Part shown: positions 5,297 through 62,159 of the stretch, one piece after another
How the letters are laid out: the number at the start of each line of letters is the position of its first letter
How positions within the stretch are numbered: position 1 is the first letter of the stretch
From: Psammoneis japonica
Taxonomy: Eukaryota
Assembly: GCA_008632985.1 (NCBI GenBank)
Contig: QPGO01000082.1
Location: 1 to 64,000, forward strand
DNA length: 64,000 bases
Reading direction: 5' to 3'
The notes under the pieces: model-generated
Told to the model about the DNA's origin: nothing
Databases searched by the model: none
Seen by the model: only the letters and a program-made list of their open reading frames with translations
Translations under genes and position numbers: made by a program

Positions 5297-6157
5297 TTAA
5301 AAGCTCCGCAGAAAAAACAGTTGGAGCAGATAACACCAGGTATGTAACCAAGAGATTCTGATCGTGACAAAAAAAGACTCCGGCGGCGGTTGCCACAAAT
5401 CGACGAATAATCTCACCCTTCCCTGCGAGGCAACGATAGTGTTGGGCGTGTAGTTTCCACACTCTTCAAACAACGGAGCGCACGGTGATCTTGCGAGCGA
5501 TGGGGTCTTCGCAATAACGTTTCACGTCCAATTTATGTCTCTAACAATGGCACGGTGTGTTGGAGTGGAGTGAAGATGAGTCAAGGGTAGTAAGAAGTGT
5601 CGTCACGTCGTCTTATGAAAGAAGAGCAAGCTGTTGCACTGCTGAGCAAGAATGTGATAAGCGTTTGATGCCTTCGCGTTCATCTGACTCACTCCATCTG
5701 GCTGGGTGCCTTCTCCAACAGAGAATCCTGGCCAGTTGGCGCCTTTATCCGCATGTCCACTCTACGTCAAATCACATATATTGACGTCATGTAAAAGAAA
5801 ACTTCAAGTTGAACTGAATCACTCAATTTAAAGTTATTCGGTCGTTAATACGCTATAAACTTTCGGGCTGTGACACCGTCAGCCCTTCTCATCAAATTTT
5901 CGATAAACAACTCTGACTCAAGTTCAATGGCTTACTAAGTCCTGCCACCCATCCAATTCTGACTGTGACGCCACGCGTGACGTCTGTGAAATAGTGACTC
6001 AATGGGGGCACTCTCGCCAAGCTTACATAGTGTCTCTTAGCAGTCGTACCCTACTCTCTAAGTACTCTCTACCACTAGAGAGTAGAGCTAGCTAGTCGTG
6101 AAAACATGAAAATCTCTCACCTCAACGCACAGACACAGACACAGTCGAGTGAGTGGA

Positions 6158-8229
6158 CGTGCAGGACCAATCAAATCATTTGGCAGGCCTCTCGGCACTT
6201 TGAGATGGACCCTCCAAATGAATGCATCGCTGGCAGTGTGGCTTTTGGGCTGACTCTTTGTGTTTGCCACAGTGACACATGCTGCCCTTGTTTTGGTGCA
6301 GTGCGGCACAGCGCCCAACAAAAACACAGTCAACGTGGCACATCGCCAACTGGAGTTGTTTGGATTGACAGCTCAGCCGCCACCAAGTGATCGCCAATGT
6401 GGCAAGATGGCTGGTGCATTGTGACACAGCTTGGGTTGGGTTGTTGTTGTGCTGTTGTCTTGTTTTCACTCTGCAACTTGCCAGCTGTGGTTGCACCACA
6501 ATGTTTTTGCGTTGTGACATGCATGACCAGCTGGCACCAACAGAGACCATGTTGTCATTTTTGCCATCTGGGTCATCTGGTGGAGTGTCAAATGAGTGGG
6601 CAAGCATGCAACACAAAGCTCCATTTTGTCACATTGGAGCATCTGTTGACACTGTGGAATCCCTCAGCTGACCCTCACTTGTTGTGATGCTGCTTTTTCA
6701 CACTTTTCAGCACAAAATCATGGTCATTTGTGTCATGGGAATTATGGCATGTGGGCAATTGCAAGCACACCTCCTGTGCTTGCCTTCAGCTCCCTTGGTG
6801 CTGCCACAGAGTGCACGCCATTTTGGAGCCCTGGGTGGCTCCTGCAGTTGCTTTTTCACCTCCTCCAGCGCCATCAGAAATTGTGGCTTTTTTGCTCATC
6901 ATGCTGATCAGATCAAAGAAAACAAGTGAGCTTTCACTGACCTCCCCAGCACCCTTTGCAGGAGACCAGCCATTTGCCAGTTGCCTGCTGAAAACTTTTT
7001 TCTCTTGCTCATTTGTGCGCACCTCATGCACACCACACAAGAACATGTTCTGCATCACAATCCTCTCAAGTGCCTTGACAAGGAGGTCACAGTGAGGAGA
7101 TGTTCAGGTGAATGGGGCTCTCAGCAAACAAAACAAAAACATTGAGCAGATGACTGCCAGCAAATGGCAAGTTGAGGGTGCTGCATCAATGCATCTAAAA
7201 CACAGCATGCTGAGTGCAACAAAGTGCAACAGCCACCAGCTTCATCAGATGGCGTGCAGTTGCCTGTTGCACACACAGCTCTCTCTCTCTCTCTCTCTCC
7301 AGCTCTGGTTCAGACAGAGCAGGGCTGGTCTCATTGAGGAAGGCAGCACTGTGTCTGTTGCCATTCCCTCCAGCTTGTGCTGAAAAAATCTGGTGAGCAA
7401 CAAATGACAGCACGACAGAGAGCACACAACTTGCTTTGATGATTGACAAAGCTTGGCTGCTGGCTGCATCTTTTTTGCCCCTTGTCCACAATCAAAGCCT
7501 CTCTCAAACACAGTGCCCATTTCCAACATTGTTTCTGAAGACAAGTGATTTGTTGGCCTCAGTGGTGTGTGTCCTCACAACTCTTCAGCACTGGGGCTGG
7601 TGGTCTGAATCAGAGCAAAAAGCAGTGCTGTGATGCAGCAACACCACAAGTGGTGCTGTCAATGAACTCCAATGCAATGAATGAATGCAAAGAGACAGAA
7701 AATGTTGGGTTGGCATGCACCAATGCCAAGGAATTGCATGAAATGCAGGGAGCAACACATGGTGGTGCAAGAGACAACAAATGCCCCACTCACACTTTGC
7801 AGGTGTTGCAACACAAGGTTGTGATTTCCCCCCCACCCCCCCACCCACCCATTGAAAACCTGGTTGATGTTTGCACCGTAAGCAGAGCATTGAGCCAACA
7901 GCTGCCCAGCTTTGTCCATGTGCTTTGAGAGGCGGTGTGGCAACAGCAACAATGCAGCAGAGCAGACAGTGGCTGCATTGACTGCTGTGATGTGACAGCA
8001 GTGGCTGGCTTTGAGTCCTGCTCTTTATGTGCCCACCACTGGCAGAGGGCCTCCACTCTAGAGCACAGCCAGCTGGTCATGCAGTGATCTCACTCTCTGG
8101 TGCTGGTGTGAATTGCCATTACCCAAATTCAACAACTGAACTGCAAGGGGGGGCTCTCACCCTTTCACGGCAGGCACAGTGGAGCTGGCATGCAGGGCCA
8201 ATCAAATCATTTGGCAAACCTCATGGCAT
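6158..8229 (+). repeat. Two ~41 bp direct repeats (6158-6198 and 8189-8229)
   Basis: cgtgcaggaccaatcaaatcatttggcaggcctctcggcac versus catgcagggccaatcaaatcatttggcaaacctcatggcat. Confidence 0.75.
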
Positions 8230-10128
8230 TGTTGTCTGGTTCCAGAAAGTCATCTTCTGGAAAAATGTGCAGCTGGTGATGTGGTTTCAGGAAGTTTTTT
8301 GGCTCTGGGTCAAACAGCTCAGTGTGCCCCCAGGTCTGGTGACCACCCCCCAGCTCTGGTTTTTTGTGGGCACTCTGGTTGAAATGTGAGATCTGCAAGG
8401 GCATTTGTGTTGGAACAGAAGCTCCTTGTGAACAAAGTGCTGCTGTGGAGACTGCAAGTCGCAGTTTGAAGGATGCCTGAATTTTTCCATTTTGTTGTGT
8501 TGACACTTGCCTGATCTTGATGGCTGCTCTTCATGCAGCTGCCAACTTGATGTGGTTGAGATTGGAGCAAGAGCTTGTCATGAGCTCACAACATGCTGCA
8601 GCTTGGGGCTGCAATGCAAAAAAAGGTTGTGGTGCATGTTGCCTCCCACTGCACACCTGATTGATGGCTGCATCATTGGAAAAAGCTCCTGGAGCCACCT
8701 CCCCTGGCTTCATTTCAGAGCAGCATTGAGGGGCAGCTTGGTGGGTGGAAGATGGCATGGCAACAGCAACAATGACAACAGAGCAGATGGCAACAATGTC
8801 AGCTGCTGGGATGAGGGCTCAGCTCTAAAGCTGCACCAGCAACAGAGTTTGAGTTTTCCTGCACAGCCACCACAGCCAAGAGGTCAACAAACTCTGTCGA
8901 TTTGACCAAGATGACACACTGACTGTGGCATCAAATTTTCCAAACACATGGTTGCTTGCCTGAAGCCTGTCATGAACTCCTCTGAGTGCACCCTTTGTTT
9001 CAACAAGATGTGCCTGATCCTAAAAATCTTCTGGGTGGCTTTGGTGCACATGAGAACCCCAGCAGGTCTCAAGTGCAGCACACTGCTGTTGCTGACATCC
9101 ATCATGAGATCATCCAGAATCTTGTCATCCCAAGAGCCAAACTTGCTGATGACACATCCCCATTGGGCCAATCATGCCAGAGCAGGCATTGTCTTTTGCA
9201 AGCAATTTCAAGTCTTCCAGCTTGTCAGGCCAATCTTTGCAACCTTGCAAAGGGCCAGCAATTTTTTTGCTTCATTGAATGCAAGAAAAGAAATCAGCCT
9301 CAGTTGGTGCCCTGCCACACACTGCTCAAAACTCCTCCACATCAATGACAGGACCTCTGTTGGCTGGAGCACAGCAAGTCTTGGTTGTGAGTTGGCTGTC
9401 AGCAGCAACAAAGCATTTTGAGGCTGCTGCAGACAGGTGGATGATGGGTTGAGATGACAACACACACTTCTTTGTTCTGATCACCCTGGCAGGCAGCTTG
9501 CAACAGTGGGTTGTGAAGTGGACAAAACATTCAATGACACAACAAGAGGTTGCAGCTCATGTTCAAACTCCATGATCTGGCCAGTTTTACCCCCTTTTTT
9601 ATTCTGTGATTAGCAGGGTGTGACACATCCAATGCAAGAAGCAAGTGCTCTGCCTGCAGCTGCAAGCCCCCTGCAAGCACCACTTTTGAAGAGCTTGTGA
9701 AAACCTGGGCCACCCATCTGCCTGGAGTCAAGCAATTTGAGGATGCCATGGCCAATGCACTGAAACTGTTCACTTTCCTCAGGCATCTCTCCTGCCACTC
9801 CTGATCACCTTGAATGTGCTCTCAACAAACTGCCACAAGTCCTTGACTTGCTGCACCTCTGGCTGCCTGTGCTATGAACACAACAGCACTGGGCATCTTG
9901 TGGTTGCAGATGGCTCTCTTTTTGTTCATCACTTGGGCCAGAGTGCCAAGGCCATTCTCTCTTGCATGACACATTGACTTGCAATGATGCTTCACCTCAA
10001 GGCATGCACACCTCATGCACTGTGGGCCACACTTGTTGCTTGGGTGGGTTTTGCCATCCTTGCAACATGTTGGGAAGGCTGAAATCTGAAAACAAATGCC
10101 ATGGATGTGGGCATTCCTTTTATTCTTT

Positions 10129-10414
10129 TGTTGGAATGGCTGGATCATGGGAAATGCAAAGAACTTGGGTGCATTAAGATGCTGTGGCTCCTGATGCAGC
10201 TCATTCAACAACTCTTGTTAAGTGGTTTTCATCATCACTGATCTCTCACTTTTGTGTTCTCATCTCCCTCTTTGGAGTGAATTGTTTGGTGGTTTACATG
10301 ATTTGTCATTCAGTGTCCTCAGTGGGTGCCTGTCATCATTCATCATGTGAGTTTGCAGTTTACATTGACACCTTTGGCAACCCATGACAATTGCAGACTG
10401 CCAAGGCAAGTGTG
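10129..10414 (+). repeat. 5' LTR
   Basis: Starts TGTTGG and aligns end to end with 16721-17010 (shared gatcatgggaaatgcaaaga, ctgtggctcctga, tgtgagtttgcagttt, cattgacacctttggcaaccca, gcagactgccaa.gcaagtgtg). Confidence 0.8.
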
Positions 10415-13400
10415 TTGAGCAGCACAGGCAGCCTGGACATGATTCACTCCAAAGAGTCACTGGCACAGCACAGACCTGGCCCACACACAGCCATTGAGTG
10501 CTGAATGCCTGCACAATGAGTGGCAGAGTGGGTGGCAGAGAAAATGACTGAGGCCAAGGATGAAGCTGCAGCAGAGGTGACAAGAGACACAGGCGCTCCA
10601 ACTGAAGAAGAAGACCAACGCCAAGAGGCACTTTCTGACTGAGATGAAAAGTTCCATCCTTCATCACACTGAACAGTGACACTTGCAATGCCACACATGA
10701 AGAAGTCAAGGAGAAGATCATCTGCCACATGCAGAAGGAGTGTGAACAAGTCACAAATTTGGAAAGATCTCTGGAACACATGAAATGCAAGGATTTCACC
10801 TCCAAGAGACCTGCTTGGATGTGTCCATGACAAAAGCACCAGCCAATGCAGACCCAACACACTGAGTCAAGCTGTCAGAGAAGCAGCAAGAAGATGAAAA
10901 AAGGGGTGCCAGCATGAAGCAGAGCCAACTGGCCACCACAAGAAAGTAAAGCAGTTCAAAGAAAGCACAAGACATCCACAATTGCCCAGATTTTAGACAA
11001 CCACTGCACCAAGCAATGAAACAGAGAGTGCAGGTCAATTCCAGTTTCTCCAGCATGAGAGACAACCCCAATGATGTCACTGAAACTGATCCAATCCCTT
11101 GCATTTGACTCAGCCAGAGGTCAACATTTGCTCCACACACTTGCTGAGGCCTGAAGAAACATCCTGGATGTGAGGCAACAAAAGAGAATGAGACACTGAA
11201 TGATCACCTGTCAAGATTCAAGAACCAGCCAGATGCTGCAAAAGAAAGACCGGGAGATGGAACGCTGGATGGAGCTGTGAGAAGAGCTTGGTGAGAGACC
11301 ACAGCCTGGGTGAAAGCCAAGACACCCATCCTGAGACTCTAGAGAAGGCCATGAATGTGCTGCTGAACCATCTGAAAGATGACAATCCTGGCACCAGCAC
11401 AAGAGGAAGAACAAAAGACAAAGAGACCACAAGAATGGTGGCAGCAATGATGGCAATGGAAACAGCTGGTCCATCAATGCAAAGGACCAGAGCCATGCCC
11501 AGAAGAGCAACCAGAGCAACACTGTGGTGTGCCACTGCAGTGGTGAGCTGTGTCACAAGTCCCAAGACTGCAAGCATTGACAAGAGGTTTGGCACAACAA
11601 TTGATTCAAGATCATTGGTGGGAAGCTGGACATGGAGGGACAAAGTCATGCACAGACACAAGTTGAGAATGATGACCACTCATTGGCGGGCAGTGGTGAC
11701 AACATCAGCACCAACACCGCCAGCTCTGACCAATCAACCTGCTCCAGCCAAAGCAGGAGTGCTGCATGGCATGGAGTGCAGCTGACTGTCAAGAGACCAG
11801 AGACCAGCACGAATCAATCCAAAAAGAGGTTGAAGCAGATGAAATCATCCTTGACAATGACTCCACCCTCAGCATGGCAGCAAGCCAAGACCAGTGCACA
11901 CAGGAGTGGATGCCCAGATGAAGACTGCACCTTGCCTGGATGGGCAGTGTGAAGCTCAGATCACAGAACGTGACAGCAAACACATCCTCAGTCTAAAGAA
12001 TGTGACAAGCAAGCAATGCATTGCATGTGATGACCAAGTCATGGCAGACAAGTTCCAGCCACTGGACAAGAAGACTGGCAAACAAGTTGCAGTGTTCAAA
12101 GTGAATGACATTGGGTTTTGCACCTTTGCACCAAGCCAGAAGCACTTTGACCATGCAAAAGATCTTCAAGAAAGCAAGTCACATGTGAGCATGCTGTTGA
12201 AAAAGAAAGAGAAGAGCGACAAGAAGAACAGGAGTGCACTTGGAACTGTGGCTCCAACAGTGGAGCAGAACTCCACAGGCTGCACTGAGAGGGAGGCAGC
12301 AAGTGCTGAGCAAGCACTCAGACTGCACTGCAAAGCTGGAACTCCCAGTGTGAGGGATTTCAAGCTGCTTTTGTGTTCAAGGTGAAGAACTTGTCCATTG
12401 TGCCTGAAAACATGGACAGGATGGTGGCCATTTGAGGTCCGCTGATGGACACATTGCAAGGCAAGACCAAACACACACATTGTTCCCATGAAGAGAGTGA
12501 CAACATGGTGGCCACCCCACCTGAGATGTGCAAGCAGCATTGATGTCATGGAAGTGTGTAGAGTCAAGACACTGCGTGCAACAGACAAGATGATCAAGTG
12601 CCAATCAAGTGCAAGACTGAGGTGCAAGAAGCATGATGATGTGTGAAATGCACTGGGCATCATCCTGCAACAGTGCAACATGGCTTTGTTCAAGATTGAC
12701 TTTGTTGAGTGTGATCCCAAGTTCAAGGACATGCCAGCAGAAGTTGTTGATGGGTTGTGAACTTAGAGCTGACACCTGTGGACACCAGTGGCCATGTTCC
12801 TGAAGTTGGAAGGAGTGTTGAGACTGTCAAAGAGCAAACTTGAGCCACTGTGCACCACCTTCCACACAAGATGACACCCAATTAAAGTTGATGTGTGTGC
12901 ATGCCGTGATCAGGGACACTGTTGTGGCAAACATGTGCCCACAGAAAGAAGGCATTTCTGACATGTGCAGTCCACACACTGTCATGAAATGAAGAAACCT
13001 TGACCATGACAGGCACTTGTTTGAGATCATCTTTGGTAAATTTGTCCTGTCTTGTGTTGAGAACAACCTGAAAAGTCCAAACACCATGGATGTGTGTGGC
13101 GTTGACAGCACACATCTGCAACCATGCTTCAGCATTCCCAAGGGCAGCCACTGCACTGTGAACTTGCACATGGGCAAGCTTCTGAATCCCTGCAAGTGTG
13201 CTGCTGCACCCCACACCAGCCCACACACATGTCAGTGGTTGAGAAGATGGCCACAGCACAGGGCATCATCAGTTTTAAATTTACAGGCAAATGCAGAGAC
13301 AATCTGCACAATGCTGATTGGACTGCAGGAGTGGACAATGGCAGAAGTGACAGCAAAGATGAAAGCAAAGATGAAATTGAAAAGAAACTTGTTGACACCA

Positions 13401-16400
13401 ACTGCTTGACAGAGTCAGAAGATGAAGACTGTGAAGACAAAGTTTGCTCAGATGACAAGCACAAAGAAGCAAATGAGATCCATGCCAATGAAAAATCTGG
13501 CCCCAATCAACAGCACAAGAGCCAAGAAGAAATTGAAGAACAAGACTGTAAAGAATGCAAAGACAACAAAGATTCAGAAGAAGATGATGAACTCCAAGAA
13601 AACACAAGAAGGGTGGGAGAAAGATTGGAGGAAGAGGAAAGAGCCACACCAGACAGAGAAGCCAGGACCGGCAAATCCTTCAACATCAAGTCATGCAAAC
13701 ACAGACAAAAGAAAGTGCAATTTGCAGGAGTGGCAGACATTGCAAAAGAGAAGCACCTGCAGAACAGACTTGAACACAGTCACCATTCATGAACAAACAC
13801 AAGCCCCAATCCAGAAGATCACATCAAGCATGATGCGGACTCCAGCATTTGTTGCATCAAAGCCCAAAAGCATTTTTTGAGAAGCAAGATGGTTGCATGA
13901 AAGGGCAAATGCTCTGCAATGGCAAACCAACCAGAGAACAGCTGGGCAAGGATGATTTCTCAATGGTGTCATTGGAGGGAATGCCAACAAGAGCCATTGT
14001 TGACACCACAGAAGGGCATGATCATGCAATGAGTGCCAGTGTGCCAAATGCATTCACACAGGCATTGATTCAGGAGCCTCAGGAAGTTGAAAACTGGATC
14101 ATGATGAAGATTGCAGGAGCGTTGGTTGACAGCATGCTGGTGAGCACTGATCCCAACCTGTGTGGACCATGGGTGATCATGGGAGAGGGAAAGAGAGTCC
14201 TCTGTGTCCAAGTCATTGGTGCCACACATGGCATGTTGGTCACAGCTCTGCTGTGGCACAAGCAATTTCGCAAGGACATGGAGAAAATTGGGCTCAAGAA
14301 CAACCCACATGGTCCATGCATTGCCAATCAAACAGTCAGTGGCAAGCAGCACACTGTGTGTTTCCATGTGGATGACCTGCTCTCAAGCCACATGAACCCA
14401 AAAGTTGATGACAAATTCCCAAGCTGGCTCAACAAAACATGTGAAAGTCATGACAAAGTTTTCACAACACAAGGGAAGAAGCATGAGTGACTGCCTTGGC
14501 CTTTGCATGACCCTGGACTTGTTCAGCCACAAAGGCAAGGTGAAGATCAAAGTGACCAACCATGTTCACAAGATGATCAACAAAAATTCCTAGAAGAGAT
14601 CAAGAGTGCAGAGACACTGCCATGATGCCAGCTGGAGAGAACCTGTTTGACACTGGTGGCACAAGATTGCTGACCAACAAAGCAAAAAAATTCCATGCGT
14701 GGGTGGCCAAGAGACCATTTGCATCCAAGAGAGGCCACATGGATGTGCACTCCACTGTTGCAGCATTGTGCACATGAGCCAGAGAGCTGACCACCAAGGG
14801 TTGGGAATGGCAGTCCATTGCATCAAGTGCCAGAACTGGACACAAAACCAAGTTGCTGCACTGAGCACAAAGGATCTCCAAGCAATCAAGTGGTGGTGGA
14901 TGTGCCATTCACAGTGCATCCTGATTTTAAGAGCCACACAGGAAGAATTGTGACCATGGGCAATGGAGCATGCAGGCCATGTCAAAATGCCAGAAGCTCA
15001 ACACCCATGGCAGCACAGAGGCTGAACTCATGGGAGTCAATGATGCAATGATGACCATGACACTGTGGATGAAGTTGTCCATGGAGCATCAAGGCCACCA
15101 ATTGACAAGAATCTCCTGCACTGGGACAACAAAAGCACCATGCCATTGGAAACAAATGGGTGGAGGATTGCCAAAAGCAGTCCAGAGCACTCAACATTTG
15201 GCACTTCTTTTGTTGCTGATCAGACAAAGAAGGGCAATTTCAGAGTGCGGCATCCAACCAACAACATGCTTGGAGACTTCATGACTGAGTTGCGCAAGGC
15301 AAGAAGTTTTGAAAGTTCAAACAAGCCATCATGGCTTTTAACTTTAAGCACAACAAGAGCATTTCCTGTTTGTGACATCAGATGAGAATTCTGATGCATG
15401 TGGGTGAAAGATCTCTGCGACCTGGAAGATGTCATGAACCACAAGGTTCAACCAGTCATGGTTTGTCCCAGCAGCATTTTGGTCTTTGAAAACCATCAAC
15501 CATGGCATGAGATCAACAAGAATGAGCATGCTGTGCTGCATGACACAACAACCTGGCAGTGGCTGTTGGGCTGTTGGTGTCTCACATGCTTGATGAAGGA
15601 GAGAAGACAAGCAGCTTCAAACAAAGATTGCAGCAGAGCACTGAAAAAGGTAATCCAGGGCAAAAAGTGCAAAGAGGAAGTCAACTGATGACCTGATCAT
15701 CACTGTGACATCACAGATCTGTCTCATGTGGGAGATGTTGTTGAAGAAATGAAAAAAGATTCATGGACACACATTCCCACAGGGGGAACAGATGATTCTC
15801 TGGTTTTGAGGAAGACCAGTGGATGAACAGGCACCAGTTGATGAGAAAAGCACACAAAGAAATGCCACAGCAAAGCCCCAAAAGGTGCAAGCACACATCC
15901 ACCACTGCGGCATTGTTCTCCATCCCCACAATGATCCAAGGGAAGCATCTAAAAAAAATGAAGAATGTGCTTGCAGAGCACACAAGACTAAAAATCAATT
16001 TTGGCAAGTTGTTGGAGGCGAGCATTGAGGCAAGGCAAACCACATGTGTCACAGACAAGATGTTGATGGCAAGGAGCACATGAGAAATGAGTGCATTGCT
16101 GGATCAGCGGGCAATGAGTTGTGATCAGCCCTGGACAAGAACAACATCTGTGGTGTGTGCAAGATGCCAAGAGTCAGTTTCTCCCTCTGTTGCATGGACA
16201 AATGTGGAGTGCATGTGGCAATCTCATGCAACTCATTGGAGTTCTGGTGTACAAGGAGTCATTGCTGACTTGTGAGTGACACAGTGGCATTGTTTGTGAC
16301 GCCAGGAAGTTGGAGTTGTTCTTCCACCACTGCACAAACCATGTGAACCCCATGTGTGGGGGTGGCTCTGCAACGGAGTGGAGTTTTTTGATTTTGCTGC

Positions 16401-16720
16401 CAAGAAAGTCAATGGCTGGATTGTGAACATGATTGATGGTCTGCACAGTGCTGTTGCAGAAAAGAGATTTTGCCAGCATGCTCGTCTGGAGCATTGCACA
16501 GAATGTGTCTGAGACACATCGCACACTTGTTCATGACATGACACATGGTTGATTGTTCTGATGATGGTGGGTGGTGCACTGGTTTGCACATTTCAAGAGT
16601 TGCAGAACATCAGCTGTGGGGCAACAGGTGAGCATGATGCCAATTTGGCCGCTGCACCAGGGGGACCCCCTTTTCCCCTCTGTGCCAGCCAGTGGAACAT
16701 CGGCGCAAGTGGCAGGAGTG

Positions 16721-17010
16721 TGCTGAAGCACCCAGATCATGGGAAATGCAAAGAGCCTGGATGTGTTGAAGGAAAGACACTGTGGCTCCTGACATGGCTC
16801 ATTTGACAACTTTTGTTGAGCAAGACTTCATTGTCACTGATTTTCTCACCTTTTTTTCATCTCACTCTTTGGAGCGAATCACACTTGGTTTGCACGTTTG
16901 TGCAATTCGTCACATTTAGCATCAGCAGCCACCTGGCATTGTGTGAGTTTGCAGTTTGCATTGACACCTTTGGCAACCCACAGCCACTGCAGACTGCCAA
17001 AGCAAGTGTG
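16721..17010 (+). repeat. 3' LTR
   Basis: Starts with TG directly after purine-rich ggcaggagtg (PPT-like) and is homologous to 10129-10414. No target-site duplication found, so the two LTRs may come from related but separate insertions. Confidence 0.78.
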
Positions 17011-17405
17011 CACAGGAAGCCCAGAGGGGCTCACTTTTGGCGACATTGGCTTGCTGGCTCAACACCCTTCTTTGAGTCATCGATGATGGATGATGACTGC
17101 TGCACAGCAGCTGGTTTTGACAGTTGCAGCACAACAACAAATTTTTCCAGACGAGTTTTTCCCATTCATTCCTTTTTTTTGGGGTTTGAAATCAAATCTG
17201 CTTGTCATAAAACTCTCATGACAGCTGACGGCTGATCTGTGAATCCCGCCCCCCCCTCGGCGCCCGTCCGTCCTTCCCATGCCTTCCTTTTCCCGCCATT
17301 TTGGCAAATTTTGGATTTCTCATCGTTCGTCCCGGAGCGACAACAACACACATCTTTTACCTTATCGATGCTACTCGTGCTGCAGGTTGTTTGTTGAAGG
17401 TCAAA

Positions 17406-18847
<1,442 letters not shown>

Positions 18848-24255: not shown

Positions 24256-26118
24256 TCACATCATCAAAAACACCAACTCAATACCAAGAATTGCAAACGA
24301 TGCAAAAACCACATGGGCAGATTTCTGTCCGCTCGTAGATGTCGGTTCCAATGTGGTTATGGTATCCGCAGGTATCGGAGTCGCGGTAGGTACCAATGTT
24401 GTTGTGGGATCCGCAGGTATCGGAGACGCGGTAGTCGTGGGTGCGCTTGATGGCGTAGCGGTGTCCGAGGCGGTAGGAGACGCGCTTAAGCTCGGCGCGG
24501 CAGATGGCATAAAAGTAGGTGCATAGGACACCGTAGGTGAGACCGACGGAACCGCAGTCAGTGGAGGAGGACGTTCTGTAGGCGAAACCGACGGGACAGC
24601 AGTCAGTGGAATGTGTATGGTGGGAGAGGCCGAAGGGACCGCGGTGGGAGAAGCCGAAGGGACCGCAGTCAGTGGAATATGTACTGTGGGAGAGACCGAA
24701 GGAACCGCCGTCAGTGGAGGACGTTCCGTCGGCGAAGCGGAAGGAACGGCCGTGAGTGGAATATGTACGGTGGGAGAGAACGAGGGAACCGCTGTCAGTG
24801 GAGGACGTTCCGTCGGCGAAGCGGAAGGAGCAGCGGTGAGTGGCAATGGTGTAGGTCCAGTAGGAGGCCCAATTGGCGAGGGTGGGGTGGGTGGCGGCGG
24901 AGTGGGTGGCGGCGTCGGGGGTGGCGGAGGAGGAGTTGGTGGCGGCGTCGGAGGTGGCGGAGGAGGAGTGGGTGGCGGCGTCGGAGGAGGCGGAGGAGGA
25001 GTGGGTGGCGGTGTCGTGACAGGCTCCGGGACAGTTCCTGATCTTAACGCTGGCAACAACTGCGTCGCGTATTGATCACAGACGTTGTCAACCTCTACGA
25101 GATTCAACCTCCTATTCTGGGCCACCAACTGTCTTACCTTGCCTAAGACAAGGCGATTAACCTCTGACACCTCGATATCCAAGAGAATGTTTGTTACATT
25201 GAGACTAAAAATTGTCGGAGGCAATGGAACAGGCCGGAATGCACTAAGCATGATGGAGTCCTCAGACACTTGCCAAAGAGCTTGAAATTGCCAAGGTCTT
25301 CCGTTTGAAGGTGGCCCACCAGACGCGACCCCGTCGAGATGAGTCATCAATCGATTCACCGGGTAATCTTCGGTGCCGCTACCCCGCCAGCAGTCGTAAA
25401 GATTTACATTCTCGGGTGTCAGCGCTGTTTGTTGGCAGGTGAACGCCTGGATAAATGCTGTCACGTCCTCGCCCTCGACATCAGCACAAGCTCTCACAGC
25501 AGCAACGTTTGCTGGATCATTGTCGGGCAAGAATCCGTGGCAATTCTGGGTTTCGTCATAGTTTTGAACAAAGCAATCTCCAGCCAAGGCCAAGACTGGA
25601 CCTCTGTCCAACGCTTGTCCAACAGTGAGAGTCGTAAACTCGTTGCAGTTCGTGATGAATTCAACACCCTTGCTCTGCAGAATTGACGCAACTCTATTGT
25701 CGCAAGCACTCCCTTCCTGACACGCGGAGATCTTGAGCAAGATGAGCTCACCCTGGTTTGCTCCTGCCCAGTCCAGTGTTTCTTGTACCGCATCTTCGAA
25801 CGAGATCTCAGTTACCTCGAACGGACCGTGACGGAAGAAGATGCCACCGTTAATTTCAGCTGGCCGAAGATCAAAGGCTCGTGCTCCACAGTCAGCCTGA
25901 GCGGTCAACGATCCAACCTGGGTCTTGGCAAAGCCTACCGTAATGTCTTCCAACGGAGATTTCTCGGGCACATACCCAGTGGCAGCGTTGTGTGAGAATA
26001 CAAACGATTCTTCGTTTAGGGGCAAACTCCTCTGCAACGGCCGCTGTGCCTGCGCAGACGAAAGCCAAAAGGCCGAAGCAGCCGCCAGCCGTATGGCATG
26101 CTTCAGAAGGCTCGTCAT
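24256..26118 (-). CDS. Secreted PLC-like phosphodiesterase (PI-PLC X-box-like) with Pro/Thr-rich stalk and hydrophobic C-terminus (possible GPI anchor)
   Basis: Signal peptide, SHNAATGY and TQVGSLTAQADCGARAFDLRP X-box-like motifs, PPPTPPPT and PLTAVPSxSPT repeats, C-terminal hydrophobic tail. Confidence 0.8.
   Translation of the reverse strand: MTSLLKHAIRLAAASAFWLSSAQAQRPLQRSLPLNEESFVFSHNAATGYVPEKSPLEDITVGFAKTQVGSLTAQADCGARAFDLRPAEINGGIFFRHGPFEVTEISFEDAVQETLDWAGANQGELILLKISACQEGSACDNRVASILQSKGVEFITNCNEFTTLTVGQALDRGPVLALAGDCFVQNYDETQNCHGFLPDNDPANVAAVRACADVEGEDVTAFIQAFTCQQTALTPENVNLYDCWRGSGTEDYPVNRLMTHLDGVASGGPPSNGRPWQFQALWQVSEDSIMLSAFRPVPLPPTIFSLNVTNILLDIEVSEVNRLVLGKVRQLVAQNRRLNLVEVDNVCDQYATQLLPALRSGTVPEPVTTPPPTPPPPPPTPPPTPPPPPPTPPPTPPPPPPTPPPTPPPPTPPSPIGPPTGPTPLPLTAAPSASPTERPPLTAVPSFSPTVHIPLTAVPSASPTERPPLTAVPSVSPTVHIPLTAVPSASPTAVPSASPTIHIPLTAVPSVSPTERPPPLTAVPSVSPTVSYAPTFMPSAAPSLSASPTASDTATPSSAPTTTASPIPADPTTTLVPTATPIPADTITTLEPTSTSGQKSAHVVFASFAILGIELVFLMM
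24530..25012 (-). repeat. Coding tandem repeats: poly-Pro/Thr units and ~42 bp PLTAVPSxSPT units
   Basis: Visible in both the DNA and the translation of the 24256-26118 gene. Confidence 0.85.
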
Positions 26119-26732
26119 GGCCAGTGAATCCTTGGTTTTGTTTGCACTTTTAACACGAATGGCCATTTGGCATGTTGTGAGGTGTTGGTCGTGCAGTGCC
26201 CACGTCGTCCCCCCACAGTCTCGGAGTTTGGCGAATTTTGGAATCTATCGGCAGTTCAACGGAAACTTTACATAGGGAATTGTTAATTCTATATTATTTT
26301 TAGTATCGAATTACTGAAGGTACTTTCGAATTATATTTGTAAGCATTTGTATATATATTAACCCGTACTCACTTTTCGTAGGCAAGTACGTCATGCATCC
26401 GTTATGAATTTGAGGGACCTGGGTCACTTTTTGCACGGGGACGAAGGCGTCTTTCTCTTATCACCAAAAACTTCCTTGTCCTGGTCACACTTTACCTGAT
26501 GTACAAGATGCCACCCGGAATGACAAACCACTTGTACTCTTCGTTTCTCTTGATACTACCGGGGTACCGGTACAGCCAGTAGCCAGTGCAGCAAAACAGA
26601 GAATTTCTCGCAAGCTCCCGGCCTTGCTTGTTCCTACCTCACAGTACCTGTACGTACAGTACCGTAGTGTCAAGACTCAAGACGCAATAACATCAACGAT
26701 TACTATATTAAGAAATAGCGATTATCCCCGGT

Positions 26733-27887
26733 TTAATTATACTTTGTCCAATATCCAGTTTGGGAGTTGTACGCTTCAAAACATGATTCAAGATGGAGCC
26801 TCTCCCCGGCCTTTGGATGATGGGGTTGTGTTAAACATGTAGTGTTGTCTCTCACGGGACGAATATCAAACTTGGTTTGTGCGAATCCATTTGGTTCACC
26901 AGGAACCCATCTTTGTTTCACTTTGAATCTGTTGCACGGTTGTAGCCTTACCGTAGTTCTATTACTTGTTTCCCTCCCAGATCTTGACATCATGCATTGA
27001 TCCGTACCACTCAGCTTGATTTGGTCACCGTCAATGTTCATGTCGGGGTGAGAGACGAATTCCCAAACAGTTGTGATGTTTGCGCACTCATCAATGAAGA
27101 GATCGTCTCCACTGTAGGTTATGCAGAAGAATTCTTCATCTTCCATCCCTTGCCACAAGAATCCTTCCTCCCAGTGGAGTCTGAACTTTTTCGATTCAGC
27201 AGTAGGCGCCATAGTGCTGGTTGGCGTATCCGATGGGGCCGCCGATGGTGTCATGGATGGTTGCATTGTCGGTGAAGTAGTTGGTGGGGAGGTTGGCTTG
27301 AGCGTTGGTGCGGAGGTCTCGATGGGGATCAAAATCTTGTTGAGGTCGCCTGAGGATATACCTTCTACTTCAAATTCCCAAAGAGCATAGCCACGGCTAG
27401 TGACGCCCCTTCGAACGCCCTCCATACGAACATACCTCGCTGATGTTCGCGGAGGGAGTTTAATCTCATCGAGCCCGCCTTTACGGCTTCTAAGGTATCG
27501 CTTCGTGTCCCAATTGACCGCATCGTTCGAGATTTGAATCTTGTACGTACTCCCATATCCTCTGCCGCCACCCCAATACAAATTCACTTGCGAAATAGGA
27601 TACACAAATCCCAAGTCAACGTAGATCCACTCTTTGTTTCGTTTCTTACTTTCCCAAAACGTATTTCTGTCTCCGTCAACAGCATTAGTCTCTTGAGATC
27701 TTCTTCTATATGATGATGCATGTATTGCGTAAGGGATGATGGTCGAAGTGGCCTGTAGCAGGTTTCGTCGAAGCAGCGGCTCATCGTTTAAATCTTTCTG
27801 TACTTCCTCTCTAGATTCCGCACGACTAAACACTAAAGAGGCCGCACCCATGACGGCCAACCGTGCCAAAATGGGGACAAGTCTCAT
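26733..27887 (-). CDS. Secreted protein: F5/8 type C (discoidin/CBM32) domain, P/T/S linker and ricin-B-lectin-like domain
   Basis: Signal peptide; NAVDGDRNTFWES, EWIYVDLG, YKIQISNDAVNW, ARYVRMEG, YALWEFEV. C-terminal Cys-spaced domain with LQPC...QRW. Confidence 0.82.
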   Translation of the reverse strand: MRLVPILARLAVMGAASLVFSRAESREEVQKDLNDEPLLRRNLLQATSTIIPYAIHASSYRRRSQETNAVDGDRNTFWESKKRNKEWIYVDLGFVYPISQVNLYWGGGRGYGSTYKIQISNDAVNWDTKRYLRSRKGGLDEIKLPPRTSARYVRMEGVRRGVTSRGYALWEFEVEGISSGDLNKILIPIETSAPTLKPTSPPTTSPTMQPSMTPSAAPSDTPTSTMAPTAESKKFRLHWEEGFLWQGMEDEEFFCITYSGDDLFIDECANITTVWEFVSHPDMNIDGDQIKLSGTDQCMMSRSGRETSNRTTVRLQPCNRFKVKQRWVPGEPNGFAQTKFDIRPVRDNTTCLTQPHHPKAGERLHLESCFEAYNSQTGYWTKYN

Positions 27888-30213: not shown

Positions 30214-32425
30214 ATGACGAAGCGTTGTATGCTTCAGCTTTCATGCTGTACTGTTATTTTTCCTTTTGAGCATCGCCGCTGTCGACGCGTTTTCTCACTG
30301 CCATCTACTGTCTCGACAAAGATGGCGTTTCCTTGGCGCACAGAGGCGAGAAACGTCCGCTGGACAGCACGGCTACGCAACATCATTGTTTCTTACAAAG
30401 CTTGAGAGTCAACCAAGCCGCAATAGCTATTGGGCTGAAGAGTCTAAGACAGGATACACCGATCAGTCATACCTCAGGTATGGAAATAGACAAAGCAAAC
30501 AAGTGCCGCAGAAGTTTGAAATGGCTCCAAGATTACGAAAGATGCTCTACATCCTTACGGCAAGCCTTTTTTTGTCGGCTAGAAAAGCGGTTGCTGCGTC
30601 GACTGCTGCTCTTGCCCTGCCGCCCAGGCTTCGCGCAAAGAAATATGTGATGAAAATTGTGCATGCGGCGTTTCTCGTCGTCGTTGCAGCAAATGTGGCA
30701 CAGGCCGTAAGAGTTCATCGTAGACAAAGAAGAGATGCGACGTCGGAGTGGGGCCGATATGCTGCTCATCCTGCAGCCAGAGGAAGGGCGGTGATGAACC
30801 TGGCTGTGAAGCTGTTGCCGTTTTGGATTGCAGACAAGATGTTGTTTCTGTTTCCTGCAAAGCAGAAAGCTATCAGAGTTGCAAGCGGTGATCTATTCTC
30901 ACGGAATCTGTTACGGTTGGGTCCGCTTTATATTAAAATTGGACAAATTCTTAGCTGTCGTGATAAGCTGCTTCCCGAAGAATGGAAGGAAGGTTTAGCT
31001 GTGCTGCAAGATCGGGTACCAGCCAGATCGGGTCAGGAGGCTCTGGAGTTGGCGTACGGTGCTGTCGGCTCACGGGAGAGATTCCACGAATTGTTCACAG
31101 ATTTTGATACAACACCATTGGCAGCTGCTAGTCTAGGGCAAGTTCACAAGGCTGTGTTACGACGCGACAACACAACAGTTGCGGTGAAAGTGCAGCGAGC
31201 GTTTTTGCGTGAAATATACGATCAAGATCTTAATCTCCTTCGTGGAATTTCTAAATTTGCAGACAACGTTGGAAAGCGTTCACGAGTTGGTGGGGTAGAT
31301 CAGTCATGGAGTGATATCTTTTCCGATACAGAGGCCATTCTATATCGTGAAATAGACTATCGCGATGAGGCTTCCAACGGCATCAGGTTCGCTCAAGACT
31401 TTGGTCTCGGCTATGGCGGGGCTGAAACGGAGGTAATGGCTAGGTCTCTTGACGACACCGGCACGCTTCCTAGTGCTGCGGAATGGTTGAGAGCGCCGTA
31501 TGTCTATCAAGATCTGTCTTCTGAAAAAATTTTAATAATGGAGTTTGTCTCCTCCATTAAGATCACGGACACGGCCAAGCTGGAAGCTGCGAAAGTAACA
31601 GCGGAAGACAAGGAGCATTTGGCCGATTCCTTGGCACGTGCTTACTTGCGTCAGTTTTGCGTCCACGGCTTCTTTTCAACAGACCCACATCCAGGTACGT
31701 TTGTCCTTATAGATGATTTGGCTGCCTCTAGAGAGCAAGGAGGATTCTCACACGTTTCGCACGTCGCTGTAGGGAACTTGGGCGTCGAAGTTTTTGATCA
31801 TGACTCTTCGCTGGCGAAACGGCGGCCTAGAATTGTATTCTACGACTTTGGCCAAGTGGCTTCTCTCACCTCAGATCAATCAGAGGGGGTTCTAGACGTA
31901 ATCGAAGCCACTATTGACATGGATGCCTCGAGATGTGTGTCTGCATTTCAAAAAATGGGCGTGCTAAAAGACGACGCAGACCTAGACAAGGTCTTGGCAA
32001 AGGTCAAGGACAACTTTGAAACCGGCAAGATCAAAGTCAAGGGAAAGAAGCTAAAAAAGAAAGGAATCAAATTGAATGAGTTTAACAGCACAGGTACAAG
32101 TAAAATGACGAAAGAATCTGACTCAGAGGTAATGTCGTTCTTCACTCTTCCCGCTGAATACGCCTTTGTCGCTCGAGCTGTATCACAAATGGACGGTGTT
32201 GGTAAGAGTCTTGATCCAGATTTTGACTTCATTTCCTCTGCAGCTCCGTATCTTGTGGAAGCTAAGGGAGCAAAGTCTTACCTGAAAGATGAATTGTCCA
32301 AGAGTTGGTCAAAGTTTCTTTCCACGGTGCAGAGCAAAATTCCAACCGTGGATGTGGTCAATGAAGGATTTGAGAAGCAGGCATCGTTTCAGAACACAAC
32401 AGATGCATCGTATGTGAAAATGTAA
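30214..32425 (+). CDS. ABC1/UbiB atypical kinase, probably plastid-targeted
   Basis: LGPLYIKIGQILS, PLAAASLGQVHKA, VAVKVQR, EIDYRDEA, DPHPG|NL (78 bp in-frame intron 31695-31772), YDFG. The ATG at 30214 joins a VDA-F presequence if one T is removed from the run at ~30257-30261. Confidence 0.9.
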
Positions 32426-34200: not shown

Positions 34201-36685
34201 CTACAGAGAAACACAACTACTTGATGACTTCCTAGCACCAACCCTGGAGAACTGTTGTTCTAACCAGTCCTGACATTCTTGCTGGACTCGTCGAGCCTCC
34301 GGGAAACCCGCTGTGCACAAGCCCCAATAAGCGTGAGGCATGTGATTTGCTGCCCTCAAGTCTGACTCTAGACCCAGTCTCATCAATCTTGTGTTGAATG
34401 TCACAGAGTCATCCAACAGTGGTCCTTCGGAACTGGCAAAGATTAAGGTGGGTGGGAAGCACTGCAGTACATCATCCGAGGCGTAAAGCGGAGATACCAA
34501 GGGGTCTTCTTTCTTCACTCCCAAGCTGGGAGGAAGATAGGCATCTGATATTGTTGAAAGTAACCCTCTGGGTAGAACGGGGTCGCTCTCTCCCGATACT
34601 CTAGAAGGTGACAGCTCCATCGTCAGGTCCAATGCAGGACAGGAAAGCATAACGGCATCGGGAAGCCTACTGACCGGCACAAACTGATAACTATCAGAGT
34701 CTGTCTCAATCAAATTGGCCTCGCTTTCAGTCACATTTGTACCCTGTGCTTCTTGAAGTCCTGCTTGACACGTTGAATCTCCTTGGCCAACTTGGCCACA
34801 AAGCTTTACACATAGCGCTGTTGCCAAGTTTCCACCAGTGGACTCTCCTGTCAGGACTATTCCATCCACACGAAAGTCTAACAAAGATGCAGCCTTTCCG
34901 CCAACGAGCTCATTGTACACTCCCATGACTTCATTCAGTGCCACCGGATATGTATGCTCAGGAAGCAGAGAGTATTCTGGGCAGATCACAACAGCGCCCG
35001 TCCGAGCACTCCAGTCAAGAAGAAATGGTATATCACTGGCAATCGTGTGCGCAAAGAAACCTCCAGCAGTAACATGAAGAATCACATTTCTCTTTGTGTA
35101 CTTTGAAAGCTCTTCCATCCAGGGTCCTGGACTCTCTGGTCTCTCGTCAATCGTTTCAAGGTTGGAAAAGCTGCGTTTCTTTTGACGATGGAATCTCTTC
35201 AAAGCAATCGCCAACTCTGATGCACAAACAGTCACAGTAGTGAGAAAATACAACGAATTACAGGACAAGCTCCACTTATCAGATATCCTTTGATGCTTAC
35301 CTGGAAAAGGATCCCGGCACAGAATAAAGCAAGAAACCCCGCAAATGTCAATTCTACTTGCCACCGCAGCTCGCTTCGCGAAACGCGACGCCTGCAATGA
35401 AATCTGTTTGACTGATGGTAGCGACACCAATCCCCAAGCACTGCGAATCAGTTCATATGATTGAGAAGATACAGCTTCTGAAGCTCTTTTTGTTGGTCCA
35501 GCAACGGAGTAGTATGATGCAGCAGCCATTGTAGCTATCGGCATCGTCCAATTGCCACGCAGGGAACTCTTGCTTGACCCTCTTGTCACCTCGACTGCTG
35601 TACCTACCGCGGCGTAGAGCAGATCCATTGTCCGTTTGATGAGCATGAAGCGAATTTCAGAAAAGGAACCCCAACCAGACACCTGCAAGATACAATAGTT
35701 TGTGATGGAATGAGAGGGATATTCTTTTTGCGCTATGAAAGACGAAGAATGTCGTTTGACTTACCGGCTGCTGATGATTCATGGTGTACTCTATAAGACG
35801 TTGTGATGTGTTGTTGTTGTACGTTTCTGAGGCAGAATCTGATGAATCTTCGCTAGGGCGTCGTGATGACTGAACACTTTGAATAAGAATCCATTGCTGT
35901 GTCCAGTCCAAGACAGAGTCTGTGCTCTTTGCAAGCTTTGACGACATCCACAACTTGCGACATCCAGCTGTTGCCAATCCCGCCGTGAATGTCACACCGG
36001 CTGCTTTTCCTGTTGTACTGATTACTGTGACAAGTTCTTTTCTTTTTGTTGGTTCCCTTCTCGTTAGGAACCAAGTCGTGCAACCAGCCCACGCGATAAG
36101 AGCCATTGCTGTAGACGTTCTTGACCGACGCCTGCTGATGACTAGATATGCATCTTCAATTCGAACAAGACAGAGCTGTAGTATGACGTTCAATCGAAAT
36201 AGTAGCGTGTCAGTTGTGCTCCGTGACTGGAAATACTGAACTGGTCTAGAGCGGTTATAGGGGGGACTTGGCGATGTCTCAATACGAACGGCATTTCCAG
36301 AGGAAAGCGTACTGATCGGGGGTTCATCGTTTCCATTAGAGTGTTCCTGTTCCGAGGCTTGCGCCCACACCATTTCCTCTGTAGGATTCTGCGGGTTTGC
36401 AATCGATCGTATCGCATCGACGACGTCCTGAAGGGTGCCTACATAGTTCCGTTGTCTAGACGGGTGTTGAAGCTTCAACTCCAAAAGCTGAACAAGATGG
36501 TGACGAAGCAGTCGCTCTGCCTCCGCTAGCGCCGCTGCTAGCTCATAAAGTGGATTTTGATGATGTATACTTTCCAGTTCTATAGCATCTCGTAGGCGTG
36601 ATATGCACTTGTCCAGCAAGTCGGCCGCCTGTGGCATGACAAATGACGAGGAATGAGTTGAATGAGAAAATTGTGGAGGATCCAT
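34201..36685 (-). CDS. Hormone-sensitive-lipase-family alpha/beta hydrolase; probably 3 exons
   Basis: LHVTAGGFF, EYSLLPEHTYP, GESTGGNL nucleophile elbow, DPLVSP, PLLDDS, MPHAY. In-frame introns at 35683-35764 and 35217-35300. Start codon uncertain. Confidence 0.82.
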
Positions 36686-49500: not shown

Positions 49501-50063
49501 AAGAAGAAGGGCAGTGTTGAGACATCATGTCTCTCCCAGAGCCCCGCCTCCCCCCACCATGACCGTTGCAGGACCACCACAACCACAGGATGGAGTTGCC
49601 CCTTGCTGGGGATCCAGCACTGAATCAATGCATCATTGTGTCTTTCCTGCCCAAAAAGCAAGGTCCAGCACTGGCCGTTTTGTTTCGGTCACTGGCCTTC
49701 CCACAAAAACGAAGATGAGGAGCTCAGGAGCGAGCAACGTGGTGCACTCTTTGTGACAGATTCTCGCCCCCACCTCTCCCACCCTCTGGCCCTGCTGTCC
49801 ATCATTGGGTTGGGAGAAGGTATCTGCAGTGCATGTGGAGCCATCTCCACTCCTCAGAACAAAACCTGCCCTTTGGAAGAACCGGCGCTTACTCACGCAC
49901 TTGCAAATTTGTTTCTCGCAGCGCACTCGTCTGACCCAGATAGCATTTTGAGCGTCGCACCGACTGTCGATGGACGGACCAGCCCGCCACGGAGCGTGGT
50001 GGCGTGACTGCTGGCTGCTGGCTGGCTGCGGAGTGATAAAAACTGATCATACAACAAGCAACC

Positions 50064-57900: not shown

Positions 57901-57949
57901 CTGAAACCCCCCTGTGAGAGCATGGGGGAGGAACAGCCCACTTTCTCCC

Positions 57950-61770: not shown

Positions 61771-61808
61771 CAGTTTTAAATAGGCTCCCGCAAAAACCTT
61801 CTTAAAAT

Positions 61809-62145: not shown

Positions 62146-62159
62146 ATGGTCGGATGATG

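Follow-up and report, generated by a model that had tools for sequence, protein, structure and literature searches.

The locus and its composition

We describe here a window of 64,000 nucleotides from Psammoneis japonica (GenBank assembly GCA_008632985.1, contig QPGO01000082.1, positions 1 to 64,000 of the forward strand; 'the window' is this whole stretch), in which long tracts, one of them carrying a decayed Copia-type retrotransposon, have lost almost all of their 5'-TA-3' and 5'-CG-3' dinucleotides (TpA and CpG, mostly written TA and CG below). Dinucleotide observed/expected (o/e) ratios were computed over the entire window in 1-kb windows, and a density scan was run for tracts low in TA and CG and longer than 400 bp. 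From approximately 7 to 17 kb, and again from approximately 55 to 60 kb, the o/e ratio is 0.00-0.10 for TA and 0.00-0.13 for CG, with CA and TG raised to 1.6-2.3. The rest of the window shows TA at about 0.4-0.8 and CG at about 0.8-1.2. GC content is about 0.49 in the tracts as in the flanks; TA and CG are depleted some 12-fold, with a matching enrichment of TG and CA.

The scan returned exactly three tracts. The longest (6341-17221) holds 38 TA and 51 CG, next to 1236 TG and 1346 CA, when the density of the flanks predicts 429 TA (binomial P = 1e-134) and 616 CG (P = 1e-198). The second (54701-60381) has 16 TA for 224 expected on the same basis, and 25 CG for 321. The third (48961-49701) has 1 TA and 15 CG; over its full extent, 48904-49820, there is 1 TA for 36 expected (P = 4e-15) and 22 CG for 52. 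We name them tracts A, B and C, respectively. The TA-free zone of tract A spans 6094-17357, with a CG-poor core from about 6400-6510 to 17228. Per 1000 dinucleotides, tract A has 3.4 TA against 39.4 in the flanks, 4.4 CG against 56.6, 123.8 CA against 73.1 and 113.7 TG against 71.7. Tract B, depleted in both TA and CG, extends over 54482-60409. Tract C (48904-49820) is TA-free and partly CG-depleted (in 300-bp windows, TA o/e 0-0.06 and CG 0.19-0.44); its conversion may be at an intermediate point, or the tract may be a fragment, for example a solo long terminal repeat (LTR). A preliminary description of this DNA, made from its letters alone, had claimed that TA and CG are nearly absent over approximately 11 kb and 6 kb, and both the ratios and the flank-based counts bear this out. 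It had located these two tracts correctly, with limits that prove slightly too narrow, and the third was missing from it.

The edges are sharp, but they are positioned differently for TA and for CG. At the left of tract A the last TA stands at 6093 and CGs go on to about 6510; at its right, CG is dense again from 17229 and TA from 17358. At the left of tract B, TA stops at about 54482-54574 and CG continues to 54809, the CG-poor zone beginning at about 54740-54810; at its right, CG is back at 60373 and TA at 60410. The TA-free zone is thereby 40-400 bp wider than the CG-poor core. The switch from TA-dense to TA-free DNA at the left edge of tract A takes less than 10 bp, and the segment directly outside it, 6024-6093, packs 12 TA into 70 bp and comprises a short palindrome. 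No motif common to the tract edges was found, the palindrome-type motif of 6024-6093 having no counterpart at the others.

What the converted DNA was

Tract A contains two direct repeats, separated by about 6.6 kb, that extend to LTRs at 10129-10428 (5', + strand) and 16721-17025 (3', + strand), which delimit the element that we call A2; read-derived contigs join the two (joint 10433 to 17042). The LTRs are about 71% identical in four letters and 89% in purine/pyrimidine (R/Y) coding, so that their divergence consists mostly of transitions. Using full-length relatives, tblastn places a reverse transcriptase (RT) remnant of the RVT_2 type at 13864-14526 (+) and, with relatives P0044, P0049, P0011, P0015 and P0008, a remnant of the RNase H side of the polyprotein at 14616-15339 (+). 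A 218-codon open segment, 13834-14487 (+), matches 2456 proteins at E ≤ 0.001 with phmmer (best 2.8e-54, 50% identity). Pfam RVT_2 is present in 7 of the 7 RT relatives scanned; the window copy itself, submitted as X-masked frames and as open segments, falls below Pfam significance. Upstream of the RT, where an integrase would be expected, tblastn gave weak matches alone (12257-12373 and 12757-12879), the target-site duplication is not resolvable, and each frame contains 73-93 stops. Contig depth makes A2 a multi-copy element. Because of the LTR pair and of the RT and RNase H placements, we take 10129-17025 to be a decayed Copia-type LTR retrotransposon on the + strand.

The remainder of tract A, A1 (6094-10128), is unclassified decayed DNA with the same signature, without a Pfam or Copia match (the latter by tblastn). 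It contains internal repeats in R/Y coding (7926-7992 with 8746-8813, and 6151-6260 with 8182-8301), its contig depth is 62-198 against about 55-60 in the flanks, and its RNY (purine, any base, pyrimidine) periodicity is marginal. A2 may have inserted into it, A1 then being repeat DNA of greater age. In tract B, likewise unclassified, RNY periodicity reaches 0.16-0.19 from about 56.95 to 57.9 kb for a shuffle maximum of 0.13, which suggests a former coding region there (about 56950-57900), on a strand that this method does not give; translations of the periodic stretch contain no recognisable motif, and a homology search with the longest open segment of the tract, 55517-56059 (-), gave no match. 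Tract C shows no RNY signal, and neither B nor C has Copia homology by tblastn. A Pfam search of 92 + 52 open segments from the three tracts returned nothing credible, the genuine RT included. In R/Y-space blast of A1, B and C against 80 related Copia loci the top scores were 87-100 bits, for controls at 94-171 bits. Tract A compared with tract B, by blastn and by R/Y blast, showed no similarity over the shuffle maximum, and tRNA and Rfam scans of the window gave 0 matches.

Direction of the change

With the flanks as a baseline, tracts A and B have lost 88.2 and 89.4 TA+CG per 1000 dinucleotides, respectively, and gained 92.8 and 88.5 TG+CA. As the loss equals the gain, nearly all the TA and CG that disappeared became TG or CA by single transitions. 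The RT remnant tells the same at the codon level. In an alignment with 18 relatives, all seven columns with at least 50% Tyr read His (CAY, four columns) or Cys (TGY, three) in the window copy, which has 0 Tyr for a mean of 8.4 in the relatives. This copy differs at 29 of 97 conserved columns: 8 differences are single TA>TG/CA changes, 8 are CG>TG/CA, 7 are other transitions, 3 are transversions and 3 are multi-change. The motifs VLCVQ, ATHGML, LLWHK and NPHGPC that the preliminary description had quoted are present in frame 3 from 10102, and the direction it had drawn from them, TAY to CAY/TGY, is upheld by the 18 relatives, by the 80 related loci and, at the DNA level, by the polarised sister trio discussed below.

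A simulation applying TA and CG conversion alone, at 92% of sites and with a random product, raised the correlation of ordinary Copia loci with the 16-dinucleotide profile of A2 from 0.71 to 0.97, and that of the window flanks with A1 and B from 0.80/0.81 to 0.96. No third process is needed beyond these two conversions.

TA>CA/TG changes never turn a sense codon into a stop, and they remove TAA and TAG. They remove all Tyr codons, together with the other TA-containing codons. In tracts A and B, TAA and TAG are gone and TGA is the sole remaining stop; both strands carry numerous spurious open frames there, 100-230 codons long and with much His, Cys and Gln.

Reads and relatives

Such a composition might also come from a sequencing or assembly artefact on modified DNA, or be intrinsic to the family and kept by selection. 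We compared contigs derived from the reads of run X1 (depth about 40-60) with the window; runs X2 and X3, which cover flank bins or nothing, were left unused. X1 contigs match 13169-13965 and 17035-17695 with 0 differences. Altogether 797 X1 contigs fall on the window, many of them paralogues at 85-95% likeness, and they differ from it by 501 transitions and 215 transversions, adjacent CA<->TG swaps included. Since the paralogue contigs differ by such transitions and swaps, the genome must contain many independently converted copies. Live inosine, read as a 50:50 mix, predicts two strand-specific versions of a converted sequence, and a random TG/CA mosaic is seen instead. Moreover, the signature recurs in separately assembled metagenome contigs. 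The base-calling artefact envisaged in the preliminary description is thus improbable.

As for an intrinsic composition, 80 metagenome loci encoding related RTs have ordinary medians (TA o/e 0.63, CG 0.84, CA/TG 1.24), and in most of them 8-9 of the 8-9 scored Tyr columns are still Tyr. The Copia family is therefore not inherently TA-poor, and the possibility that intact relatives would be as TA-poor as the window copy, raised beforehand, is rejected. With 73-93 stops per frame, the window copy is not under selection either. What speaks for the artefact or for selected composition is that the runs containing this DNA come from one sample, with the platform off record; set against everything above, we regard both as very remote.

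Two separable processes

Differences from the relatives at conserved columns were split at the codon level into TA-type, CG-type and total. Among 73 of the 80 loci, pooled as ordinary, 15 of 992 differences (1.5%) are of TA-type and 87 (8.8%) of CG-type, when the TA-type share is 25-75% in mutated copies; this disposes of the suggestion that the changes might show no enrichment in TpA context. The window copy counts 7 TA-type and 8 CG-type differences in 28, and locus L080, 12 and 9 in 31, with 8 of 9 Tyr turned into His/Cys and 4 of 9 Arg changed. Other loci have undergone TA conversion with little CG loss. In L074, 7 of 8 Tyr became His/Cys and 1 of 7 Arg changed (7 TA-type, 2 CG-type, 20 in total), some windows having a TA o/e of 0.03 at a CG o/e of 0.84. 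In L077 the figures are 5 of 8 Tyr and 1 of 4 Arg (6, 1 and 8), and in L038, with a CG o/e of 0.94, 4 of 9 Tyr and 0 of 9 Arg (7, 1 and 15). Conversely, CG loss stands alone in L047, which keeps 8 of 9 Tyr with 6 of 9 Arg changed (0, 11 and 21; CG o/e 0.12, TA 0.76), and in L029, CG-poor overall (0.23, for TA at 0.60), which keeps 9 of 9 Tyr with 0 of 8 Arg changed. What these two loci show, in other hosts or copies, would be ordinary methyl-CpG decay that the TA process did not accompany.

As each conversion occurs without the other, TA and CG conversion are two separable processes, both saturated in this window. This supports, in both directions, the earlier claim that there is a second activity, different from CpG decay as well as from repeat-induced point mutation (RIP). 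The term 'double hypermutation' used for it holds in so far as both conversions took place, and is better read as two independent processes at saturation.

Sister copies and the polarised spectrum

Three of the loci, L025, L016 and L074, form a set of sister copies with an identity of about 92% in four letters and of 98-99% in R/Y coding. They were polarised by majority over 934 columns, with 28 TA and 26 CG in the consensus. L074 has 43 private changes (13 TA>CA, 6 TA>TG, 7 CG-type, 12 other transitions, 5 transversions), L016 has 31 (1, 5, 6, 13 and 6, in the same order) and L025 also 31 (0, 0, 3, 24 and 4). The TA-type share, 19/43 in L074 for 0/31 in L025, is significantly different (Fisher p = 5e-6). 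If the TA sites of L025 are taken as ancestral, about 23 of 34 were converted in L074 (15 to CA, 8 to TG) and 12 of 34 in L016. The products carried by L074 and L016 differ at sites 286, 310, 334 and 415, so these copies changed independently. In L074, T>C at TpA amounts to approximately 34% per base against approximately 1-3% elsewhere, an excess of about 20-fold or more. This copy retains a 439-codon open frame despite its heavy conversion.

A second sister cluster (L053, L057, L062 and L068, with 46 TA sites) shows 2-8 TA changes per copy. Because these are few, strong conversion is copy-specific and not clock-like; the TA process would accordingly be episodic or dependent on the state of the copy, since some copies are heavily changed when sister copies of the same age are untouched.

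Flanking context

In the tracts, TA survives very unequally according to its neighbours: 0 for ATAT, 0 for ATAC/GTAT, 0.013 for ATAG/CTAT, 0.016 for GTAC and 0.019 for CTAC/GTAG, then 0.08 for ATAA/TTAT, 0.11 for CTAG, 0.14 for GTAA/TTAC, 0.35 for CTAA/TTAG and 0.36 for TTAA. Residual TA half-sites have a 5' T in 52% of cases, against 20% in the flanks (p = 3e-17). The preference for half-sites is thus RTA (equivalent to TAY), then CTA, then TTA, with TTAA spared. Survival of CG is ordered differently, from 0.25 for GCGC down to 0.028 for TCGA and 0.02 for CCGA/TCGG, a further sign that the two processes are separable.

This ordering bears on a first rival, biased mismatch repair, in which a T:G glycosylase or endonuclease guarding methylated CpG against deamination would also turn T:G mispairs left by replication errors at TpA into C:G. 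Such a process has the advantage of tying TA loss to methylated regions, it would yield the same outcome classes as those observed, and it could account for copies that lose TA while keeping CG (L074, L077). The depletion of CTAG in Escherichia coli has been ascribed to very-short-patch repair acting in this way. Yet CTAG is here relatively spared, at 0.11 when RTAY contexts are at 0-0.02; CG was lost in the window as fully as TA, when strong T:G>C:G repair ought to have preserved it; the polarised changes of L074 include as few as 5 T>C at TpG for 173 TG/CA sites against 19 for 28 TA sites; and its CG o/e is not raised (0.48, for 0.51 in L025). Of the mechanisms acting on DNA that we weigh, this is the one we find hardest to credit, and we deem it improbable.

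A miscoding thymine comes slightly before it, though we would still not bet on it. Here an oxygenase of the TET/JBP type would produce 5-hydroxymethyl- or 5-formyl-uracil at TpA in silenced DNA, and occasional pairing with G would give T>C. Pure transitions, on both strands and at a palindromic target, fit this chemistry as well as they fit adenine deamination. Dinoflagellate DNA, besides, has its 5-hydroxymethyluracil enriched at TpA and TpC, trypanosome telomeres carry base J at the T of TpA in both strands, and 5-formyluracil forms mispairs with G. However, T>C at TpC shows no rise in the polarised trio, where it occurs once, nothing in the present analysis pointed to such bases or enzymes in diatoms, and oxidised thymines are normally repaired efficiently.

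Strand, timing and the place of action

Along the tracts TG and CA follow each other without runs (z = -1.27, n = 2565; z = +0.25, n = 1299), and six converted RT copies, read on the sense strand, have 25 T>C for 17 A>G (p = 0.28). Both strands were struck about equally, each site independently. The LTRs of A2 allow one to follow this at the scale of a single element: 40 TG/CA sites agree between them, and the discordant sites comprise 10 TG-versus-CA, 3 TA-versus-TG and 2 TG-versus-CG, which matches independent conversion of about 25 ancestral CG/TA sites. Conversion would then have come later than the separation of the LTRs. The TA-free zone, moreover, extends about 300 bp beyond the 3' LTR. 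In L074, Copia homology ends at about nt 1000, and nt 935-2055, unrelated in sequence, have a TA o/e of 0.03-0.24 for a CG o/e of 0.6-0.84; this tail could be host flank or another element.

We infer from these observations that conversion acted on chromosomal DNA, in situ. What favours this is the discordance of the LTRs, the conversion of A1, B and C, where retroelement features are undetectable, a TA-free zone exceeding the 3' LTR and the TA-poor unrelated tail of L074. The alternative is editing before integration: an adenosine deaminase enclosed in the particle would act on genomic RNA (TA>TG in the sense strand) and on minus-strand cDNA (TA>CA), and each insertion would arrive already hypermutated, as retroviruses do under APOBEC3. 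It would explain well the burst-like, all-or-little change per copy (0 of 34 TA sites in L025, 12 in L016, about 23 in L074); all copies with a proven TA change are indeed Copia retroelements, and there is an established precedent in the way APOBEC edits LTR elements (PMC4866542, in the part available). The sense strand, however, shows no bias at 25 T>C for 17 A>G, when APOBEC-type editing is more than 10-fold biased according to the same part of that source (PMC4866542). Nor does it sit easily with LTRs that differ at 10 TG/CA and 3 TA/TG sites, with the equal conversion of A1, B and C, which lack retroelement homology in R/Y space, with the TA-free 300 bp past the end of the 3' LTR, or with a TA-poor state that reaches sequence unrelated to the element in L074. 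Editing before integration is the most serious of the rivals, and it nevertheless looks unlikely to us.

Neighbouring genes and other features

Genes, open frames and repeats were noted between and beyond the tracts. A 636-codon open frame without a Pfam family (24256-26166, - strand) contains internal repeats with a 42-nt period at 24491-24853. It is followed by a gene with an F5/8 type C (discoidin) domain (26733-27887, -), which has a weak ricin-type lectin match. Adjoining genes encode an ABC1 kinase (30521-32425), an alpha/beta hydrolase (34201-35646) and, at 37497-39137, a protein with a SPRY domain. The named relatives of the kinase are all from diatoms (best identity 59%), the host being itself a diatom. 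The assembly has a single N at 40506. An 851-codon open frame, again without a Pfam family (42260-44815, +), carries 87-nt tandem repeats at 44229-44477 that look rich in Pro, Thr and Ser. Finally, 61436-62148 holds tandem or direct repeats (period about 165-180 bp), with copies 89-98% identical and 85% R/Y identity over 554 columns; their TA and CG are normal, so that repeated DNA is here unconverted.

A proposed mechanism

Our reading is that two separate context-specific transition processes went near completion on old transposon-derived DNA, and that the one directed at TpA was driven by an enzyme, likely by adenine deamination; we would give it a probability of roughly 0.5. The first process, CpG to TpG/CpA, would be the expected decay of methylated CG, methylation being assumed by analogy with diatom transposons in general. 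The second would be a hypermutation of TpA to TpG/CpA on DNA, an A:T to G:C change at the TA step. An enzyme acting on DNA is pointed to by the pure transitions, the palindromic dinucleotide, the involvement of both strands, the flanking preference and the copy-specific intensity. It would convert bases at TpA on chromosomal transposon copies, and most likely it would do so by deaminating adenine to hypoxanthine, a base read as G. TA being palindromic, deamination of the top strand would give TG and that of the bottom strand CA. The final composition is clean because TG and CA are the end state of both processes.

The flanking preference offers a hint as to the enzyme. The tRNA deaminases TadA/ADAT act on A34, always after U33 (the target being U33-A34-C35), and bacterial TadA, like early base editors derived from it, prefers UAC/YAC, which resembles the TAY found here. 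Trypanosome ADAT2/3 reportedly deaminates DNA in vitro. This likeness suggests, by analogy, a domesticated member of that fold. To go one step further, diatoms might possess a DNA editing system, linked to genome defence or to heterochromatin, that recodes A:T at 5'-TA-3' in transposons, maybe by adenine deamination: we advance this as a tentative proposal, with the odds rather against it.

Several points weigh against this reading of the locus. Deamination of adenine in double-stranded DNA is not known to us from any natural enzyme. The TAY preference is drawn from about 59 residual sites and 23 polarised changes. Action in situ is no more than the likelier reading, as late editing during reverse transcription can also make LTRs differ. 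In the second sister cluster, copies that we count as unaffected have an approximately 2-4 fold TA excess, and a general mutational bias may be part of the picture. The runs, besides coming from one sample and a platform off record, may share the source of the assembly itself. Lastly, A1, B and C are unclassified as transposons, and targeting of transposons is firmly shown for the Copia copies only.

Two further candidates were put aside. Mutagenesis of the Pol-eta type at WA (W being A or T) is expected to produce about half transversions, when all 7 Tyr changes are transitions and the losses and gains of dinucleotides balance. GC-biased gene conversion is at odds with an unchanged GC content and with LTR copies that disagree.

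If the TpA process is enzymatic, it would amount to a new kind of genome defence in major marine primary producers, and it might provide a natural source of adenine-editing or thymine-recoding enzymes. There are also practical consequences. Converted elements escape Pfam and nucleotide-similarity searches, so that the transposon content of such genomes is underestimated; recoding into purines and pyrimidines recovers them. Conversion leaves long spurious open frames rich in His and Cys, which gene finders may mis-call.

Comparison with known systems

In the literature outside subscription journals, supplements excluded, we found no description of TpA-directed hypermutation of transposons. The accessible part of a paper on diatom retrotransposons (PMC2806351) contains none of the words hypermutation, dinucleotide and deamination; that of a 2025 preprint on diatom transposons (10.1101/2025.10.24.684338) does not mention TpA-directed hypermutation, and the same holds for the accessible parts of PMC4504042 and PMC9258296, the one match to 'TpA' in PMC4504042 being the word 'Tpase'. 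The TA change is thus apparently a separate mutation process, as yet undescribed.

The CG half of the signature would be explained by methyl-CpG decay: it is symmetric (CG>TG/CA), site-autonomous and limited to the transposon tract, and Arg CGN>TGN/CAN changes are seen in the window copy and in related loci. Diatom transposons are methylated, and loss of DNMT5a removes methylation in Phaeodactylum tricornutum, as stated in the available part of PMC9998398. TA was removed here as well, unlike what happens in methyl-CpG decay, which cannot do so.

Hyper-editing by ADAR shares with the TA process its A to I transitions (I being read as G) and a preference for a 5' U. ADAR accepts a 5' A nearly as well as a 5' U, and it edits in one-strand clusters. 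In the tracts, AA is not depleted (+12 and +4 per 1000), the products form no strand runs by the z-scores given above, and both DNA strands were changed, which rejects editing of this type. The bias of very-short-patch repair in E. coli, with its depletion of CTAG and its excess of CCAG/CTGG, also goes from TA to CA/TG; to our knowledge no other process makes this conversion in a genome. Being bacterial, it acts genome-wide and is tied to Dcm sites, when we deal with tracts in which CTAG is among the better-surviving contexts. This survival, and the contrast between TpG and TA sites in L074, speak against a T:G repair bias of this sort.

APOBEC3-type editing, like the TA process, leaves copy-specific and context-dependent bursts of transitions fixed in integrated LTR retrotransposons. 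It changes C to U on the minus strand, hence G>A in the sense strand, with a strand bias of more than 10-fold, as the available part of PMC4866542 has it. Here it is A:T pairs in TpA context that are affected, and both strands are struck; APOBEC-type editing is rejected.

There is likeness, too, with RIP of ascomycete fungi, which acts on chromosomal copies and is also a sharp-edged, context-specific transition hypermutation, confined to transposon or repeat DNA, whereby coding capacity is lost. RIP depends on a cytosine methyltransferase of the RID/DNMT4 type. Many diatoms, not P. tricornutum, carry a DNMT4 related to fungal RID, of unknown function according to the part of PMC9998398 available. 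RIP, however, goes from C:G to T:A, mainly from CpA to TpA, so that it creates TpA and stops and lowers GC content, when the reverse step is seen here: TpA is destroyed, CpA/TpG is doubled and polarised changes are TA>CA/TG. The RIP indices are opposite (TpA/ApT 0.06; (CpA+TpG)/(ApC+GpT) 2.05), no stops are made and GC content is nearly unchanged. RIP is set off by duplication and strikes every copy of a repeat before meiosis; A2 is multi-copy here, and the sister copies L025, L016 and L074 changed very unequally. RIP is rejected, composition and polarised changes both confirming the opposite direction that the preliminary description had claimed. All described transposon-directed hypermutation, be it RIP, methyl-CpG decay or APOBEC editing, leads from C:G to T:A; removal of TpA by A:T>G:C, with a flanking preference and copy-specificity, implies an uncharacterised mutagenic activity on DNA. 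Should the diatom editing system that we tentatively propose be real, it would mirror fungal RIP with A:T>G:C changes, and would be the first adenine base editor found in nature that acts on chromosomal DNA.

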